Positions 1 to 5,733 of a stretch of 5,733 nucleotides of DNA are shown here, piece by piece. This DNA comes from a virus. The position numbers and the translations under genes are program-made. Each line of letters opens with the position of its first letter. The stretch's first letter is position 1. The notes beneath the pieces are model-generated. The model searched no databases. It was given only the letters and a program-made list of their open reading frames with translations, and was not told the origin of the DNA. The stretch lies in IMG/VR virus record IMGVR_UViG_3300045988_046501, positions 1 through 5,733 of that record. One strand, 5' to 3'.

Positions 1-129
1 AGCGTCCCGGATTATATCACTTTCGGTATATCGTGTATTTTCCAGAGTACATGCCTTGATGTGTTCTAGTGATTTGATTTCTTTCTCTGTTAGGTTGATG
101 TTTATTCGTTTGACTATTTGACTTCTCAT
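1..129 (-). CDS. 5' part (first 43 codons) of the RHH gene. This is a duplicate partial copy created by the terminal redundancy; the intact gene is 5554..5721.
   Basis: ATG at 129->127 is preceded by AGGAGG (141->136) with a 6-nt spacer. The reading frame runs off the left edge of the window and continues at 5592 in the circle. Confidence 0.6.
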   Translation of the reverse strand, partial: MRSQIVKRININLTEKEIKSLEHIKACTLENTRYTESDIIRDA

Positions 130-141
130 GTTGTTCCTCCT
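1..141. repeat. Terminal redundancy: 1-141 is identical to 5593-5733 (assembly wrap-around of a circular genome, unit length about 5,592 nt)
   Basis: I compared the two 141-nt strings base by base and found no mismatch. The repeat cuts through a gene that is intact only when the ends are joined. Confidence 0.95.
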
Positions 142-169
142 AGATGAAGTGTGTGATTAGTACACTCAT

Positions 170-198
170 ATTATACACCTCCTGTTCTTTCCTGTCAA
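170..198 (-). promoter_or_regulatory. Perfect consensus sigma70/sigmaA-type promoter TTGACA-17 nt-TATAAT driving the RHH and Rep genes
   Basis: On the minus strand, TTGACA is at 198->193, a 17-nt spacer (ggaaagaacaggaggtg) at 192->176, and TATAAT at 175->170. The -35 box directly abuts the VP2 stop codon (201->199). The RHH SD and ATG lie about 30-40 nt downstream. Confidence 0.6.
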
Positions 199-1083
199 TT
201 AGTGTTTTATTTTGCCCTCAATTTTGCCGGATACTTCATATTCTTTGCTCTGTGTTTCTTCGCTGTACTGGTTCCTTTCTGTTTTGCTCAGCTGGCCTAC
301 CTGTCTTGCGCTGGAGTCTGTGATCTGGCTCATCATACCTTGCAGCTGTTCTGCTGTCCAGTAGTCATTTGACTGTTTGGCGCTGTTGATTGCTGCTTGC
401 ATGTTCGTCAGTACCTGTGCTGTGTTGTTACCATAGTCATACATGGCCTGCATTGTTGCCGTTTTGGCTGCTGGAATTGCCATTGCTTGTGTATGGCTGT
501 AGGTCTGACCTCCGCCCACTGATGCATAACCGCCGTTTGGAGTGCTTGCGCCGTATCCGTTGTAAGCCGCCAAGATCGGATTTAATCCTGCTGCTTTGAG
601 GTCTTTTACGCCTCTCTGATAGGCTGTGGAACTCATTCGTTCTTCCCAGTCTCTTTGCAGCTGTGCTTCCTTTGCGTTGTACCTCATTGCGCTGCTTTGG
701 CTTGCTGCACTCATTGCATTGGTTGCTAAGCTTGCTCCTAAGTTGATGATGTTTCCGAGTTTCCATTGACTGGTTTGCAGGTCGTTTGCTGTTGTTGCAC
801 TGCCTAAGTTGAAATCAGCTGCGGTTTGACTGTTGTTTCCTGTAGGCGTTCCCAGGGCTGTGGATAGTAGGTTTCCGAGTGCTGAGGTGTTGCCTGTCTG
901 CACACTTCCTCCGGCTCCTGTGGTGGTTTGAGTGTTGTTTCCGGTGACTGTACCACTCGAGATGGTATTGTTCATTGTGTTCTGTCCGGTTGCGCTGGAT
1001 GAATTGCCTTTGAGGTTTGAGTAGATGCTTGATAGCATTCCTGCTATTTGCAATCCACCCATGAGTGTTGTAAACAAGCCCAT
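199..1083 (-). CDS. VP2-like minor capsid / DNA pilot protein (functional analogue of phiX174 H), 294 aa
   Basis: Contains the gokushovirus VP2 hallmark block [37 protein letters not shown]. It has a hydrophobic N-terminus followed by a long S/T/N/G-rich low-complexity segment. The SD AAGGAGGGG lies 7 nt upstream of the ATG, and the gene sits immediately downstream of VP1. Confidence 0.85.
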
Positions 1084-1095
1084 TTTGTCCCCTCC

Positions 1096-2778
1096 TTAAA
1101 TCGTTTCCAGGCCCGGGATGCTGTAGATCGGGAGAGGTCTTGTCCACGTCTGGTCGAAGTAGAAGTTGCAGATGAATTGATGGCTGTTGGAGCTCTGAAC
1201 TGCCAATGTTCGGTCGATGTTTGTTTTATTTTCTGTTATCCATCTTCCGCTTAGTTTTGGCAGCTCGTTGTATTTGTCCGCATAGTGCCATGCATCCAGT
1301 GTCTGTGCGTAGGTGCTGCGCATTTCGCTCGTTACCATGTTTGTGCGGTACCTGTAATCGGCCCAGGCTTCCTGGTAGCCAAAAACCTCTTCATCTTGTG
1401 CGGTTCCCTGTGCATAGATTTCCTGATTTAAAACGGCTTGTTCGCCCAGGTTTGCCAGCATTGGGTCATAGTAGCTGAATCTGGTGCTCCGCGTCCACAT
1501 TCGCGCAAGGCCTTGCTGATAGCTGTGTTCTACTCGTACTGCCGCCAGTCCAATGATGAATCCATGTTCTGTTGCCGAATAGGTGCACATGTTTCTGGAC
1601 ATGGTTGTCATACTGTATGCGCCGGTGTTGCCCTGCGGACTTGTGCTGTCTGTGCTGGAGGTCTGCACTACCTGATTGATGTTGATTGGCAGTCTGTATC
1701 CGCCAATGTATTCGCTTCGGTCGAGTCTTGCATCCGGCGAGGTGACCCCCCAGGCCCCCTGTAAGATTTCTTTGTACCTGGTGCCGGTTCTGGCATCTCG
1801 TTCCAGAATATGTTGTACTGCGATTGCTTGTCTGAGTTCGTTGATGGTTGTGCTTGTGGTATTGCTCAGATCTGCGCCGATGTAAGTTGTTTTGGTTGGG
1901 TTAATATTCCCTTGTTCTACGAAATTATAGTCGTCTTTTGCTTTTCCAATCAGCCTGCTTTGGAATTTTTGGATATCATCAAGGTCGAAATGTTGCTGAA
2001 GTTCTGCTTCTGTGTCTCCCCATGTCCATGGCGAGTAGTATATTTCTGGTTTTCCGATTGCGGCCGCTTGTTTTGTCATTTCTTTATCAGTGTATGTTCT
2101 GATTGGTGCGTTGCCTGTCAGTGGCAGCGTCACTGCTTCGCCTTTTTGAGGGCTCGGCAGGCAGCTTGTGAAGTAGTCTTTATATTTGGTTACTTTTAAG
2201 ACTTGTCCGCCTCTTTCCGGTGAATTTAGCCCGTCACTATCTTCGTTTGCTCCGTCCGTTGTTTCGTCTCCTGTGCTCATTGGCCGTGGTTCGCTAAGAT
2301 TTTCGTCTCTGAACCACTCATTCCAGATTTTTGTGTATGCTCGTAACGGTAGGCTGTTTACTTCTATGTTTTCAACGCCTGTCGGGATTCCGAAGTAATC
2401 AGCGACAGTTCCGACCTTCCATCCGCCTTTCGGTGCTTTGGTTTTCGGAGTCGTGTACTCTATGGGTTCCGCCCAGTAACTGCTGTCGTTCTGTCCCATG
2501 AGGTTTTCAAAGTGATCCCACAGCAGACGTGACGGCACGAAGAAGAAGTAGAAGTCGCAGTTGCAGTTATCCATGACCGGATAGAGTGGTGTACTCATTC
2601 TCATGAGTGCGTTCATGCTGATTTTTGCGGTATCGCCCGGCAAAACTTCATCACAGTAGATTGGCACCAGATCGCCCTCGTTGATTGTCGTCAGCAGGTT
2701 AAAATCTCGTTTGAATCGTGATCTCCGGATTTCTGCTCGTGGCACTTGTGCATAGTGCTGTTCGCTGTTTCGATTCAT
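1096..2778 (-). CDS. VP1 major capsid protein (Microviridae F-protein family), 560 aa
   Basis: Characteristic blocks are present: RSRFKRDFNLLTTINEGDLVPIYCDEVLPGDT, DFYFFFVPSRLLW, INELRQAIAVQHILERDARTGTRYKEIL, QVVQTSST, EHGFIIGLAAVR..YQQG, LANLGEQAVLNQEIY and FGYQEAWADYRY. The SD is AAAGGAG. The ATG overlaps the VP3 stop (ATGA). Confidence 0.97.
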   Translation of the reverse strand: MNRNSEQHYAQVPRAEIRRSRFKRDFNLLTTINEGDLVPIYCDEVLPGDTAKISMNALMRMSTPLYPVMDNCNCDFYFFFVPSRLLWDHFENLMGQNDSSYWAEPIEYTTPKTKAPKGGWKVGTVADYFGIPTGVENIEVNSLPLRAYTKIWNEWFRDENLSEPRPMSTGDETTDGANEDSDGLNSPERGGQVLKVTKYKDYFTSCLPSPQKGEAVTLPLTGNAPIRTYTDKEMTKQAAAIGKPEIYYSPWTWGDTEAELQQHFDLDDIQKFQSRLIGKAKDDYNFVEQGNINPTKTTYIGADLSNTTSTTINELRQAIAVQHILERDARTGTRYKEILQGAWGVTSPDARLDRSEYIGGYRLPININQVVQTSSTDSTSPQGNTGAYSMTTMSRNMCTYSATEHGFIIGLAAVRVEHSYQQGLARMWTRSTRFSYYDPMLANLGEQAVLNQEIYAQGTAQDEEVFGYQEAWADYRYRTNMVTSEMRSTYAQTLDAWHYADKYNELPKLSGRWITENKTNIDRTLAVQSSNSHQFICNFYFDQTWTRPLPIYSIPGLETI

Positions 2779-3269
2779 TTATTTTCTCCTTTTTGCACAT
2801 CTTTTTCCGTTGCTGCAGCGGTTTCTTTTTGTGCATTTTGCTGTTTTTCAAAGCCCATGGCTTTCATCCAGTTTTCATCACCTGCGGTTGCTGCCCACTT
2901 TTCAAAGGACATTCCGAACGCTGCCCGGATGTTGAGCGGCAGTTTTTCGAATTTTTCTCGCTGTTCGTTCATGAGGTTCATGAATTCGGTGTAGCTGCTC
3001 GGTAGCTTGCTGGTGTCGATGTACCAGCCCGGTTTTGCAAGGGCAGTCTGATCTCCGGCTGCGTATCGGCTGAGGATGCTCATAATGTCGCATTCATCCC
3101 GGTAACTCTGGATTTTTTCATAGACGTTTACTTCGCCCACTTTTTCGAGATAGGCTACGCCTCGTTCATCATACCGCTCCTTATACTGCGGTTCCATGAT
3201 GCTGCCTGGATCGTTGAACAGCGCTGGCGGTTTTTCGTCTTCGTATGGTTTAAAGATTCTTACTGCCAT
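2775..3269 (-). CDS. VP3-like internal scaffolding protein, 164 aa
   Basis: The size, acidic and helical character, and motifs typical of gokushovirus VP3 (YEKIQSYRDECDI..IL.RYAAGD and FEKLPLNIRAAF) all fit. The SD is AAAGGAG. Translation appears coupled to VP1 through a 4-nt overlap. Confidence 0.8.
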   Translation of the reverse strand: MAVRIFKPYEDEKPPALFNDPGSIMEPQYKERYDERGVAYLEKVGEVNVYEKIQSYRDECDIMSILSRYAAGDQTALAKPGWYIDTSKLPSSYTEFMNLMNEQREKFEKLPLNIRAAFGMSFEKWAATAGDENWMKAMGFEKQQNAQKETAAATEKDVQKGENK

Positions 3270-3513
3270 TTTCCTGCTCCTTTTTCATGATTTCGAGGTT
3301 ATAGACCATCTCCGGCATTCCGTTCGGCACGATTTGGCCGCTTTCGTTGTCGTACTGGGCCATCAGATAGACTCGTTTGTCTTCCGTGTCGCTCTTTTCC
3401 ATCTCCTGTGCCATCCACTTAAAGGTGCGTGCTGCCACCTTTTCGTTGACTACCATCAGATTGCCGAAAGTCCCGGCCAGTTCGTCTTTTACTGCATATA
3501 CCTGAAAAATCAT
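3250..3513 (-). CDS. VP5-like small non-structural protein, 87 aa
   Basis: The N-terminal pattern MIFQVYAVKDELAGTFGNLMVVNEKVAARTF and the later YLMAQYDNESGQIVP resemble, from memory, the conserved ~85-aa gokushovirus ORF5 family. The SD GGAG lies 8 nt upstream. The gene overlaps the VP3 start by 20 nt. Confidence 0.55.
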   Translation of the reverse strand: MIFQVYAVKDELAGTFGNLMVVNEKVAARTFKWMAQEMEKSDTEDKRVYLMAQYDNESGQIVPNGMPEMVYNLEIMKKEQENGSKNL

Positions 3514-3525
3514 GTTTTTTTCTCC

Positions 3526-3645
3526 TTACAGTCGGATACCACCCCGAGACGGCTTCGGGTTGATATTGATTTTCTTCGTCTTCTTTGCCGTGTTGGTGAA
3601 GATTTTCTTATCCTTTTTCGGATTTACGGGCATTCTGTGTGCCAT
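3526..3645 (-). CDS. Small, highly basic DNA-binding/packaging protein (gokushovirus ORF8-like, analogue of phiX174 J), 39 aa. It is below the ORF-track length cutoff.
   Basis: My hand translation gives MAHRMPVNPKKDKKIFTNTAKKTKKININPKPSRGGIRL*. The SD AAGGAGGAG lies 5 nt before the ATG at 3645. The protein is K/R-rich with a C-terminal RGGxRL motif typical of these proteins. Its stop overlaps the SD of the next gene. Confidence 0.6.
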   Translation of the reverse strand: MAHRMPVNPKKDKKIFTNTAKKTKKININPKPSRGGIRL

Positions 3646-3755
3646 TTTTACTCCTCCTTATCGAGTTCCAAAGCGTGATAGATTTTGTCCAGCATGGCCA
3701 GGATCTTCCGAAGCTGGTTGAAGATTCCCTTGACGTCTCTCAAAGTAATTATTGG

Positions 3756-4139
3756 TTATACCCCCTTTCTGTAAAAGTCTTTTCTTACATCGACATGCAC
3801 AAAGTTTGTGTATAAGATCACTCCTCCGTGTGTGCCGAGGATTTCACTTGCTGTCTGAGCTACTTTTCGAGGACTTACATTTTTCACCCAGATGTCCGCT
3901 GCCATTCCGGCCAGGTGGTAGCTGTAAGCTTTTCCGCCTACTTTTTCATTCCATTTTTCGGTTCTGAACCCTGAGTTGATGTGCAGTACTCCGAGTCTGT
4001 TTCGGATTTCCTGCAGCAGCTCTGCCAGTTCATCTGCTATCAGCACAAGATCGCTGCCATCTTTACAGGCATATTCCCTGACCTTGAAATTTTCTGTCAC
4101 TTGTCCGTTTCTGTCGTTGTGCATTCTGTAGATTTTCAC
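3756..4139 (-). CDS. Zinc D,D- or L,D-peptidoglycan peptidase, Peptidase_M15 (M15A/M15_3, LAS-fold) family, 127 aa; a putative endolysin
   Basis: The family signature is readable: FKVREYACKDG ... INSGFRTEKWNEKVGGKAYSYHLAGMAADI (H-x6-D zinc ligands) ... FVHVDVR (third His, then Asp). The start is GTG at 4139, with GGGGGA 8 nt upstream. The nearby ATG at 4141 is immediately followed by TGA. There is no signal peptide, transmembrane segment or wall-binding domain. Confidence 0.85.
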   Translation of the reverse strand: MKIYRMHNDRNGQVTENFKVREYACKDGSDLVLIADELAELLQEIRNRLGVLHINSGFRTEKWNEKVGGKAYSYHLAGMAADIWVKNVSPRKVAQTASEILGTHGGVILYTNFVHVDVRKDFYRKGV

Positions 4140-4163
4140 ATTTTTAATCCCCCTTTCGTTTTT

Positions 4164-4190
4164 ATTTTAGCAAAAAAAAAAAAATTGCAA
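4164..4190 (-). promoter_or_regulatory. Candidate late promoter with an extended -10 element: TTGCAA - 15 nt (T13 GC) - TAAAAT, with TGn directly upstream of the -10
   Basis: The minus strand reads ccTTGCAA-TTTTTTTTTTTTT-GC-TAAAAT-aaaaacgaaaGGGGGAttaaaaatGTG. TGC at 4172->4170 gives TGnTAAAAT. The promoter sits just upstream of the first gene of the structural block. The 15-nt spacer is short, so the -35 assignment is weak. Confidence 0.4.
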
Positions 4191-4211
4191 GGTCTTTGTT
4201 TGAGGCCTTGC
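4172..4211 (-). terminator. Intrinsic (Rho-independent) terminator downstream of Rep
   Basis: The minus-strand RNA would be GCAAGG-CCUCAAACAAAGA-CCUUGC-AA-U13. The stem pairs 4211-4206 with 4192-4187, and two further pairs are possible inside the loop. A 13-nt U tract (4184->4172) follows. Confidence 0.55.
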
Positions 4212-4215
4212 GCTA

Positions 4216-4234
4216 GGCACGGTTGCCCCGTGCC
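4216..4234. other. GC-rich hairpin B: GGCACGG-ttgcc-CCGTGCC (7-bp perfect stem, 5-nt loop)
   Basis: Read directly from the sequence. It lies in the largest non-coding region, and its function is unknown. Confidence 0.5.
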
Positions 4235-4245
4235 GTATGAAAAGC

Positions 4246-4283
4246 AAGGCGCAACCCAGTGTTCTGCATCCGGATTGCGCCTT
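4246..4283. other. Hairpin C: AAGGCGCAA-20 nt-TTGCGCCTT (9-bp perfect stem)
   Basis: Read directly from the sequence. On the coding strand it begins 13 nt after the Rep stop codon. Confidence 0.5.
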
Positions 4284-4296
4284 TAATTGCCGTTCC

Positions 4297-5406
4297 TTAT
4301 ATTTCGTCTCTTATCAGTTTTTTGAATTTGTCTTGAATTAGTTGATTTTCCTTGTTATAATATTCCTGTAGGGTTAAGCCGTTGTTCTGTTTGAGCTTAG
4401 CGAAGAGTGCGTCATTTGCGAGTTTACGACGCTTTCTTTTTATCGCTTTAAGTTCATCGGACTCGGCTTTTTCTGTTATCAGCTCAATATCTTCTACTTC
4501 TGATTTCGAGAGTGGTTTTTTCAGACATTGTGCATCATACAGCTTGTCGAAATATCGTGGTGGTTTGCACACTTTCCCATTTTTCAGTTGAATCTTGTCG
4601 TTTTCGTAGATTTCCTTGCTGTGTTCTTCAAAATATCTCGCTCCAATTGCTGGTCTTTTGCTCATGTTGCATTTTTCTGGCAGAATTCCGAGCTCGTTAT
4701 AAAATTCTTTGCCCTCCTTTCCGTATACCTTTTTTGTGGTGTATCTGGCTGTGTATGCCATTGCTTTCCATTCTGCTGGAGCAATGACAACATAACCCAA
4801 ACCCCACAATTTTGTAATCCAATCGACGTTGTAATATACAGCGCCGTTTTTCTTTTTGTAGATCTTCAACTCTTCATTTTTTATCGGTAAATCGTAAACT
4901 ATTGCATGATAATGTGGCCTGTGTGTTTTTCCACCGTATTCACCACATTGAAAGTACATCAGTTGACCGCAGTTTTTTTCATGGTATCTGATGTGATCTC
5001 TGAGCCGTTTCCAAAATTTTTGCATGTCATCATACTTGAGCGAGTAGTTTTCGGTGTAGATTTCGCCTGTTTCCTCGTTCCATACTGCTCGAAGTGGTAC
5101 ATGCTCTTCATCGTATGTCAAGGTGATGAACCATGCATTTTTATGATACGGCAATTCTAATTCCATTCGGTTTGCCCAGCTGCTTGCTGCTGCCATTTTG
5201 CAAGCCGGACAGTGTCCACATGGTAGTAGCTGTGCATCCTGGTTCTTCAGCTGCTCTTTGATTTTTTTCTCGTTCCTGGCTTGAGTCTTTTTGTCTGCGT
5301 TCTGGTTCAAGAATAAGCCTGTGTGTTCTATGTACCCTTTCAGGCTGACTATGCGGTATTCTCCGCTTTTGGTCGGTACTCTTATGAGTGGTCTTGTACA
5401 TGCCAT
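4297..5406 (-). CDS. VP4 replication initiation protein (HUH rolling-circle endonuclease, phiX174 A-protein superfamily), 369 aa from the ATG
   Basis: Motifs present: LPCGHCPACK, motif 1 FITLTY, motif 2 RPHYHAIVY (HUH), and motif 3 AYTARYTTKK (two catalytic tyrosines, Y-x3-Y). I chose the ATG at 5406 (MACTRPL..., a typical VP4 N-terminus) over the TTG at 5442 used by the ORF track. GGAGGAGG lies 14 nt upstream of that ATG. Confidence 0.93.
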   Translation of the reverse strand: MACTRPLIRVPTKSGEYRIVSLKGYIEHTGLFLNQNADKKTQARNEKKIKEQLKNQDAQLLPCGHCPACKMAAASSWANRMELELPYHKNAWFITLTYDEEHVPLRAVWNEETGEIYTENYSLKYDDMQKFWKRLRDHIRYHEKNCGQLMYFQCGEYGGKTHRPHYHAIVYDLPIKNEELKIYKKKNGAVYYNVDWITKLWGLGYVVIAPAEWKAMAYTARYTTKKVYGKEGKEFYNELGILPEKCNMSKRPAIGARYFEEHSKEIYENDKIQLKNGKVCKPPRYFDKLYDAQCLKKPLSKSEVEDIELITEKAESDELKAIKRKRRKLANDALFAKLKQNNGLTLQEYYNKENQLIQDKFKKLIRDEI

Positions 5407-5429
5407 ATTGTTTCGTTGCACCTCCTCCC

Positions 5430-5472
5430 CAATGGGCCCCAATAACTCTCTTGATGTTATTGGGGCCCATTG
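5430..5472. repeat. Perfect 17-bp inverted repeat with a 9-nt loop: CAATGGGCCCCAATAAC-tctcttgat-GTTATTGGGGCCCATTG
   Basis: The arms are 5430-5446 and 5456-5472, with no mismatch. Each arm contains GGGCCC. On the coding strand the stem ends exactly where the Rep SD (GGGAGGAGG) begins. Confidence 0.9.
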
Positions 5473-5553
5473 ACAGAAAATTTAGCTCTTGCCCAAAAAA
5501 ACCTATGGACAGATGTTGCAGAACTGGACGGGTCTCCCCGGCCATGTTCGTTT

Positions 5554-5721
5554 CTAGTCCTGCAAGCCCATTGTTTCTGCATACATGTTGATAGCGTCCC
5601 GGATTATATCACTTTCGGTATATCGTGTATTTTCCAGAGTACATGCCTTGATGTGTTCTAGTGATTTGATTTCTTTCTCTGTTAGGTTGATGTTTATTCG
5701 TTTGACTATTTGACTTCTCAT
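5554..5721 (-). CDS. Ribbon-helix-helix (CopG/Arc/MetJ-type) DNA-binding protein, 55 aa. It is not in the ORF track and is intact only across the circular junction.
   Basis: My hand translation gives MRSQIVKRININLTEKEIKSLEHIKACTLENTRYTESDIIRDAINMYAETMGLQD*. The layout is a classic RHH: a basic N-terminal beta-strand with alternating polar residues (KRININL), helix A (TEKEIKSLEHIKA), a turn, then helix B (ESDIIRDAINMY). AGGAGG lies 6 nt before the ATG at 5721, and the TAG stop is at 5556->5554. Confidence 0.65.
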   Translation of the reverse strand: MRSQIVKRININLTEKEIKSLEHIKACTLENTRYTESDIIRDAINMYAETMGLQD

Positions 5722-5733
5722 GTTGTTCCTCCT
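5593..5733. repeat. Second copy of the 141-nt terminal redundancy
   Basis: Identical to 1-141. Confidence 0.95.

Follow-up and report, generated by a model that had tools for sequence, protein, structure and literature searches.

Do microviruses regulate the expression of their replication initiator? These phages are among the most abundant in the gut, textbooks present their gene expression as fixed by how strong the promoters and terminators are, and they have been thought to lack transcription factors. The question is raised by the viral record IMGVR_UViG_3300045988_046501, of which we analyzed positions 1 to 5,733 (5,733 nucleotides (nt), hereafter the window). Here, a 55-amino-acid (aa) open reading frame (ORF), predicted to encode a ribbon-helix-helix (RHH) protein, lies directly upstream of the gene for Rep, the HUH rolling-circle initiator. 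An earlier interpretation made from the letters alone (the sequence-only reading) had likened this arrangement, with the promoter in front of it, to the copG-repB cassette of pMV158-family plasmids. Sequence comparisons and the analogy with CopG lead us to favor, with moderate confidence, a role for the protein as a CopG-like autorepressor of the RHH-Rep operon.

The ends of the window repeat (1-141 = 5593-5733), and the genome is a 5,592-nt circle. It is therefore legitimate to read across the junction, as the sequence-only reading had done in following the genes around the circle. The genome is that of a gokushovirus-type microvirus, with a VP3 that matches Chlamy_scaf and a VP1 that matches Phage_F (E = 1e-166), and its nearest GenBank relatives are from pig and human faeces.

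The 55-aa gene (MRSQIVKRININLTEKEIKSLEHIKACTLENTRYTESDIIRDAINMYAETMGLQD) occupies positions 5554-5721 of the minus strand and is read 5721→5554. Its ATG (5721→5719, equivalent to 129→127) is preceded by a Shine-Dalgarno (SD) sequence, TAGGAGGAAC, on the minus strand at 133-142 (142→133), a position at which AGGAGG or GGGG is conserved in relatives. About 100 related genomes carry the ORF in intact form and in the same gene order (VP2-ORF-Rep). Searches with tblastn revealed intact, unannotated homologues in six GenBank microviruses (47-54% identity), always between VP2 and VP4. A metagenome protein collection contained 282 homologue clusters at 90% identity, and the longest contig among the 120 clusters listed was at most ~5.9 kb, i.e., microvirus-sized, while an exhaustive profile search of metagenome proteins yielded 45 clusters at 50% identity. 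The order VP1-VP2-ORF-Rep, with the RHH gene directly upstream of the HUH Rep on the same strand, was found in 41 of the 42 IMG/VR loci with a homologue, whose Reps share 48-95% identity with that of the window; four further loci, which were picked by Rep, also carry the gene. Nucleotide differences between moderately diverged pairs fell mainly at third codon positions (420:256:1135 for positions 1:2:3). The 55-aa ORF is a real gene under purifying selection.

Which fold does this protein adopt? No single test was decisive, and weak matches pointed repeatedly to RHH families. The Pfam RHH_1 profile matched the window protein with 20.0 bits (E = 6.4e-4; gathering cut-off 20.5) and seven of 46 diverse family members at E ≤ 0.01, the best at 8.6e-5. 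A match was also obtained to phrog_876, a transcriptional repressor family (9.5e-4), and the sub-threshold NCBIfam matches included the RHH families ORF56 copy control, RelB, BrnA, NikR, aCcr1, and CdrS. When the PDB was searched with a profile from a broad alignment (A3), TTHA0139, CopG (twice), ORF56, and ParD were among the weak matches (E = 0.04-1.2); the search with a narrow alignment (A1), by sequence only, returned no RHH protein. The best profile match of the family was CopG itself. In hhalign comparisons, the family profile aligned with CopG (the sequence used being identical to that of PDB 1b01) over 40 columns, corresponding to CopG residues 2-41 of 45, with 75-82% probability, and the score of 26.2 was above all 300 shuffles (8.3 ± 1.8, maximum 17.4). 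ParG, Arc, and omega gave no significant hhalign match. Thus, the match to CopG, Arc, or omega that had been anticipated was obtained for CopG and not for Arc or omega.

The AlphaFold2 (AF2) model of the monomer, calculated from the 46-sequence alignment with a predicted local distance difference test score (pLDDT) of 75.5, contains an extended segment (residues 1-14) followed by two helices (residues 15-31 and 36-50), which is the strand-helix-helix order of a ~45-residue domain. The invariant residues comprise K/R-R-x-N-x-N-L-T in the predicted strand, along which the invariant R8, N10, N12, and T14 alternate, and S-D-x-x-R-x-A-I in helix 2. Profiles and model together make it very probable that the 55-aa protein has the RHH fold. 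In one family member, P0126 (125 aa), the RHH unit is naturally duplicated in tandem within a single chain, and the single-sequence AF2 model of this protein has, with low confidence (pLDDT 54), the order E-H-H-E-H-H, where E is strand and H is helix.

The gene is preceded by promoter P1 (minus strand, 170-198), which starts directly after the VP2 stop and consists of TTGACA (198→193), a 17-nt spacer, and TATAAT (175→170). As the sequence-only reading had it, this promoter matches the consensus at all 12 positions; no other site in the window does so, and the chance expectation for a perfect promoter is ~0.002 in 11 kb. An alignment of the VP2-to-ORF spacers of 48 related genomes showed that TTGAC(A/G) and TATAWT, 16-18 nt apart, are kept in 46 of them. 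P1 is overlaid by an operator-like array (minus strand, 148-179) of three hexamers with a 13-bp period: GGTGTA (179→174), which overlaps the -10 box, AGTGTA (166→161), around +1, and an inverted CACACT (153→148). The general form of the array in relatives is GGTGTA at -10, RGTGTA at about +1, and an inverted YACACY, and many genomes have a fourth hexamer, in either orientation, just 3´ of the -35 box. Among 38 distinct sequences, the block GGTGTATAnTATGnGTGTAnnAATCnnACACnT hardly varies, though the Reps diverge to 48% identity, and the presence of a promoter is not enough to account for this conservation. AGTGT-N9-ACACT at 166→148, previously flagged as a weak operator candidate, proves to be strongly conserved and to belong to this periodic array over the -10/+1 region, to which the protein would bind.

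Several further features distinguish the array. The coding strand of the entire genome contains just two copies of GTGTA, both within the array, and a hexamer triple at 13-bp spacing arose in one of 2,000 shuffles. As RNA, the region folds with -5.9 kcal/mol (z = +0.6), which is no better than shuffles; this points to a DNA-level element and rules out the alternative to an operator, an RNA hairpin in the 5´ untranslated region. A search of IMG/VR for the array's 19-mer core identified 53 contigs, of which 50 are microviruses with the RHH gene; the RHH start lies 48-54 nt downstream of the 19-mer in 49 of the 53, and the 50th microvirus (L086) was confirmed by eye. A 9-codon mini-ORF, MSVLITHFI (ATG AGT GTA ... 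TAG; minus strand, 144-170), overlaps the array, with an AGGAGG 8 nt upstream and its stop codon inside the SD of the RHH gene. We set this leader ORF aside on the grounds that relatives vary at first and second positions of the loop codons, a pattern that speaks against selection on the peptide, that the ATG is missing from the copy of the array at a second promoter (P2, below), and that the ATG lies at or before the expected transcription start.

Sister genomes provide a natural contrast. In MG945870 (Rep 37% identical) and three Dulem viruses, 202, 205, and 206 (48-52%), the VP2-Rep gap is 96-151 nt long and contains neither a homologous ORF nor a TTGACA-17-TATAAT promoter, and no RGTGTA-N7-RGTGTA pair was found anywhere in the four genomes. 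The joint absence indicates that the ORF is gained or lost as a single insertion/deletion unit together with its SD, promoter, and array. A GC-rich hairpin just 3´ of the RHH stop in the window (hairpin 1, described below) lies directly after the VP2 stop in Dulem virus 202 and hence marks the 3´ boundary of the inserted cassette. The cassette is self-contained, ~250 nt long, and located between the VP2 stop and the pre-Rep hairpins in one clade of pig and human gut gokushoviruses. Its gain in the RHH clade is the simpler reading, because the outgroup is without the unit. The first ORF after Rep in Dulem viruses 205 and 206 (L118 4073-4261, L119 4023-4211) gave a weak match to the family profile (E = 0.003-0.007 in a small search) and no Pfam match, and it may be a relocated, diverged regulator.

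Does the promoter of the RHH gene also serve Rep? Rep/VP4 (369 aa; minus strand, 4297-5406, read 5406→4297) matches PF23343 (2.3e-15) and phrog_942 (1.4e-94), and its N-terminal start, MxCTRP, is conserved and agrees with the annotated VP4 starts of the GenBank relatives. Scans for promoter-like and terminator-like sites between the RHH stop and the Rep ATG (5407-5553) were both empty, which makes co-transcription of the RHH gene and Rep plausible, as had been proposed. Three hairpins follow Rep (minus strand, 4172-4283), and the last of these, 4211→4172 followed by T13, has the sequence of a canonical intrinsic terminator at the end of the RHH-Rep unit, where the sequence-only reading had placed a terminator. 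A simple terminator scan missed this hairpin because its loop is longer than 8 nt.

The most likely mechanism, for which CopG at Pcr of pMV158 serves as the model, resembles the means by which small plasmids set their copy number. Dimers of the protein would bind the hexamer array cooperatively across the -10/+1 region and occlude P1, which would otherwise be very strong. This block would lower synthesis of the protein itself and of Rep, which would be made from one transcript that extends up to the terminator at 4211-4172, and the Rep supply could thus be held roughly constant, or be shut off early, as replicative-form copies accumulate. Dimerization, DNA binding, repression, and co-transcription are all inferred.

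The same hexamers recur at a second promoter in relatives. P2 lies downstream of Rep in 24 of the 40 relatives with enough sequence and has the layout TTGACA-AGTGTA-N7-GGTGTA(TAAT)-N7-GGTGTA, in which the hexamers and their register on -35/-10/+1 are those of P1 and the bases between the hexamers differ. Examples are found in L001 (KX513873; ~1205-1290), L010 (~2186), and L020 (~4501). In the form TTGACA-AGTGTA-N7-GGTGTATAAT-AAA-GGTGTA, P2 has three direct RGTGTA repeats with a 13-bp period and drives a variable accessory ORF. Neither the window, which has P1 alone, nor its closest relatives have a P2. In the P2-bearing relatives the protein would probably repress a small early regulon. In L005 (MG945373), P1 and the RHH gene are separated by an additional ORF of 61 aa (3691-3950), and elsewhere this genome has a second small RHH-like ORF (MKDTVNVYLEPGITEELLEWAQ...; 175-360) that matches Pfam RHH_5 (E = 0.013).

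How closely does this locus resemble characterized systems? CopG (PDB 1b01/2cpg) is a 45-aa protein that is co-transcribed with repB from Pcr, where four dimers cover ~50 bp including the -35 and -10 boxes (PMC2724298). The present locus shares with copG-repB an RHH gene of 45-55 aa immediately upstream of an HUH initiator gene, on the same strand and behind one strong promoter, with no intervening promoter or terminator and presumably one transcript. A multi-site operator of ~45-50 bp over the promoter core would be a further likeness; here it is putative and takes the form of the conserved array of three to four RGTGTA sites, the core of which is also present in two contigs that do not have the gene. 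Several properties differ, however. Rep is of the microviral VP4/gene A type (PF23343 REP_ORF2-G2P, phrog_942) and not RepB (Rep_2); no antisense promoter equivalent to that of RNAII was found on the opposite strand of 5400-5560, where no site has ≥ 9/12 matches and a TTGACA at 5469-5474 has, as judged from the sequence, no usable -10 box; the RHH gene and Rep flank the putative origin hairpin, whereas in pMV158 the origin is upstream; and the host element is a lytic-type virus and not a plasmid. Thus, the likeness to the copG-repB cassette that the sequence-only reading had put forward holds for gene order, promoter, and profile, and not for family membership, given the differences in Rep family, antisense RNA, and place of the origin. 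We infer that the cassette works like copG-repB, yet is not a member of the pMV158 cassette family.

Other RHH regulators offer partial parallels. ORF56 of the Sulfolobus plasmid pRN1 is a small RHH protein whose gene precedes a replication gene in the same transcript, and it represses that replication gene. Family members match NCBIfam ORF56 (1e-4) and, weakly, PDB 2k9i, but all of these matches are below threshold, and ORF56 is archaeal and has a primase-polymerase partner instead of an HUH protein. Omega of inc18 plasmids is an RHH repressor that acts on arrays of short direct and inverted repeats at several promoters, and phage P22 encodes the RHH repressors Arc and Mnt. The presence of one motif at P1 and P2 of relatives recalls omega. 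By contrast, neither omega nor Arc has profile similarity detectable by hhalign, and the omega heptads are contiguous, whereas the hexamers here are 13 bp apart.

Between the RHH gene and Rep lies a second conserved element. An 81-nt spacer (minus strand, 5553→5473) extends from the RHH stop to an inverted repeat that forms the Rep-proximal hairpin (minus strand, 5430-5478), with flank TTCTGTCA, a 17-bp stem, and loop ATCAAGAGA. The repeat (5430-5446/5456-5472), which the sequence-only reading had noted as a 17-bp palindrome, is perfect, and its arms are separated by a 9-nt loop, making it of the hairpin type and not a contiguous palindrome. In 26 distinct sequences the flank TGTCA and the loop core TCAAGA are invariant, compensatory double changes are seen at 14 of 18 stem pairs, and pairing is retained in 95.7% of cells, with no G-U/G-T cells in the stem. 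None of 500 shuffles reached the score, slid controls were nowhere near it, and the fold z-score is -5.3. Because wobble pairs are missing and the loop is conserved, the element looks like a DNA hairpin that is recognized in its loop and flank.

This inverted repeat had also been named as a second operator candidate. That proposal fell: all four RHH-less genomes retain the hairpin with the same TGTCA flank and loop, and the absence of G-T pairs fits a DNA hairpin. Hairpins with a TGTCA flank, a covarying stem, and an (A/T)CAAG loop lie at ~2660-2715 in L117, ~2640-2700 in L118 and L119, and ~5690-5745 in L120, genomes that are without the RHH gene and whose Reps are only 37-52% identical. The hairpin is a general gokushovirus element, probably with an origin function, and is a candidate for either a priming signal of the complementary strand or the viral-strand origin used by Rep. 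In the reekeekee- and roodoodoovirus clades, an intergenic DNA hairpin close to Rep, similarly with a compensatory stem and a conserved loop, was described as conserved (PMC9865509). Within TCTCTTGAT, the loop complement, lies CTTGAT, which forms the core of AACTTG/AT, the phiX174 nick site. This match spans 6 nt of the non-coding strand and may be due to chance; the phiX174 origin, unlike the hairpin, lies inside gene A and needs no hairpin.

The position of the RHH gene next to Rep, ~80 nt from this hairpin, raises the possibility that the protein is a replication accessory or host-factor adaptor, which would be anchored on phage DNA near Rep and the origin hairpin and help origin melting or recruit host replication proteins, parallel to the RHH accessory proteins of HUH relaxases. 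In relatives, the adaptor role would be exerted through a C-terminal tail like that of SSB, the protein that binds single-stranded DNA. Firmicute SSBs end in DDDLPF, and 44 of 162 fetched family proteins (~27%) end in an acidic stretch and [LI]PF (EEEDLPF, DDDDDLPF, NDDLPF, and others), with different linkers in several sub-lineages. Examples are P0123, P0134, P0135, P0139, P0143, P0150, P0153, and P0161, as well as the proteins encoded by L001 (5273-5485), L003 (5204-5416), and L006 (5273-5485). These ends mimic the bacterial SSB tip, which docks PriA, primase, RecQ, and similar proteins; the tip sequence DDDIPF is a docking site for many replication and repair proteins (PMC5872125). In L064 (IMGVR_UViG_3300045988_022642, ~1866-2500), two tandem RHH genes share one P1: the first is canonical (KRINVNLT) and the second, the start of which overlaps the stop of the first (ATGA), is a variant (KIFKVKLT) with a DDLPF tail. 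The tails suggest that in some relatives the RHH protein also contacts the host replication machinery. As a general account, however, the adaptor role is unlikely, as the window protein is untailed, and genomes that do not have the gene conserve the hairpin and its TGTCA flank just as well, which makes both independent of the RHH protein. In particular, the dependence of sites by a nick hairpin on an accessory protein, as in the TraY/MobC type, was not seen, since hairpin, flank, and loop are conserved without the gene in four of four genomes, and in the window no RGTGTA pair is found near the hairpin. Only the array on the P1 and P2 cores co-occurs with the gene, and this is where a transcription factor would sit. 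A version that joins the two roles is equally doubtful: the phage, from a family supposed to be strictly lytic and free of regulators, would have acquired a plasmid-style copy-control module that throttles Rep and allows a low-copy episome or carrier state, and in about one quarter of relatives an SSB mimic (...EEDLPF) would recruit or hijack the host SSB interactome (PriA, primase, and others) at the phage genome. If true, the SSB mimic would couple transcription control to replication.

Several observations weigh against a CopG-like autorepressor. The window protein falls 0.5 bit short of the Pfam threshold, and Foldseek searches with the AF2 monomer (PDB, BFVD) and the tandem-member model (PDB) found nothing meaningful, which is attributable to the small size of the protein, the use of a monomer only, and the low confidence of the second model. 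The 13-bp period would keep successive dimers off one face of B-DNA, unlike the CopG sites, which lie on one helical face. The Rep SD, GGGGAGGAGGTG (minus strand, 5430→5419), is 13-14 nt from the ATG, beyond the optimal distance, and Rep may be controlled mainly at translation. Between this SD (GGAGGAGG) and the conserved ATG, within 5404-5430 of the minus strand, all relatives conserve a GAAAC motif, and the distance and the motif suggest a deliberately weak or regulated translation of Rep. Hairpin 1 (GGCCGGG-GAGA-CCCGTCC with one mismatch; minus strand, 5526-5543), which was seen in the fold just 3´ of the RHH stop, could attenuate read-through into Rep. Most relatives have a GC-rich hairpin of other sequence at this position; no T-run follows the stem, hence hairpin 1 is not a canonical terminator.

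The conserved P1 block itself admits another explanation. Two phage contigs that are not microviral, L083 (8.2 kb; 7822-7900) and L089 (90 kb; 9622-9700), likewise contain the 19-mer core with TTGACA at 17 nt; they have a P1-like core and leader of the form TTGACA-17-(GGTG)TATAAT-ATGRGTGTAA, and no RHH-family ORF was found in the available DNA of either. GGTG directly before TATAAT is frequent in phage contigs, and TTGACA-N13-GGTGTATAAT alone is so common in them that a scan for it was uninformative (≥ 120 matches, near the chance expectation). Part of the block could thus be a host promoter or leader signature and not an operator. Taken further, the entire block would be an intrinsic signature (for polymerase escape, the mRNA 5´ end, or a host factor) that the phage protein does not bind, which we consider quite unlikely, and the same low standing applies to its corollary that the RHH protein has other targets, such as host genes, or serves in superinfection exclusion. 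The outer inverted-repeat pair shows A-T, G-C, and G-T and never A-C, and this could reflect single-strand pairing; the RNA fold described above speaks against it. Moreover, a strict period of 13 bp separates the hexamers, which recur in either orientation and at two promoters with differing intervening bases, and the RHH-less sister genomes are without hexamer arrays. That the protein is antitoxin-like or of the partition type, and unrelated to Rep control, is very improbable indeed. RelB, BrnA, and ParD antitoxins are among the weak NCBIfam and PDB matches, but the 5.6-kb genome contains no toxin or ParA-type gene, adjacent or elsewhere, as all other ORFs are accounted for (Rep, M15, VP5, VP3, VP1, VP2, and two small ORFs), and the downstream partner is Rep every time. 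A CopG-like autorepressor therefore stays the reading that we favor.

Has such a regulator been seen in a microvirus before? A 2022 announcement of Microvirus-AZ-2020 (ON111452) described a 68-aa ORF upstream of Rep as a "putative transcription regulation protein" based on HHpred and ColabFold (PMC9584320). Like the 55-aa gene, this is a small ORF directly upstream of a gokushovirus Rep that was proposed to encode a DNA-binding protein. It differs in having no similarity evident by eye, no KRxNxNLT motif, and no Pfam RHH match, and homology between the two proteins was rejected by inspection and Pfam; neither a promoter or operator nor a comparative analysis was reported for it. Apart from this announcement, searches of the available literature for an RHH protein, CopG, or a repressor in microviruses revealed no earlier account. 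A global survey, in which microviruses are portrayed as having hardly any accessory genes, mentions as such only peptidases, methyltransferases, and small unknown proteins, and no regulators (PMC9239249). The view of microviruses as having no known regulator, which the sequence-only reading stated for the classical ones, has to be softened in light of the putative DNA-binding protein of Microvirus-AZ-2020. Our analysis adds a predicted transcription-factor cassette that is conserved, unannotated in six GenBank relatives, and equipped with operator-like arrays at one or two promoters, and the presence and absence of the cassette in sister genomes backs it. It provides a handle on how replication is timed relative to packaging in gokushoviruses and on their possible persistence without lysis, and makes regulated Rep expression in a gokushovirus directly testable. 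The variants with an SSB-like tail hint at an additional connection, to replication proteins of the host.

The genome as a whole has a G+C content of 46%, and every gene is on the minus strand. In the direction of transcription, the order is the 55-aa ORF, Rep/VP4, an M15 peptidase (4139→3756), two small conserved ORFs, VP5, VP3, VP1, and VP2. Abutting the T-run of the Rep terminator is P3, a promoter candidate of the extended -10 type identified by its sequence pattern (TGCTAAAAT; minus strand, 4164-4172), which has no RGTGTA array. The terminator T-run followed by TGnTAAAAT is kept in 17 of the 25 relatives with enough sequence, in the common arrangement of hairpin, T-run, and TGGTAAAAT (window 4164-4211, minus strand). 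P3 would probably drive the M15 peptidase and the structural genes, and the layout looks like a repressible early unit followed by a constitutive unit. An Rfam scan of the window matched no family. Directly after the M15 gene lies a small conserved ORF, (ITL)RDVKGIFNQLRKILAMLDKIYHALELDKEE (minus strand, 3648-3743), with TTG or ATT as a possible start. The second small conserved ORF (minus strand, 3526-3645) encodes a 39-aa basic protein that belongs to phrog_10695 and is probably the DNA-packaging counterpart of phiX174 protein J.

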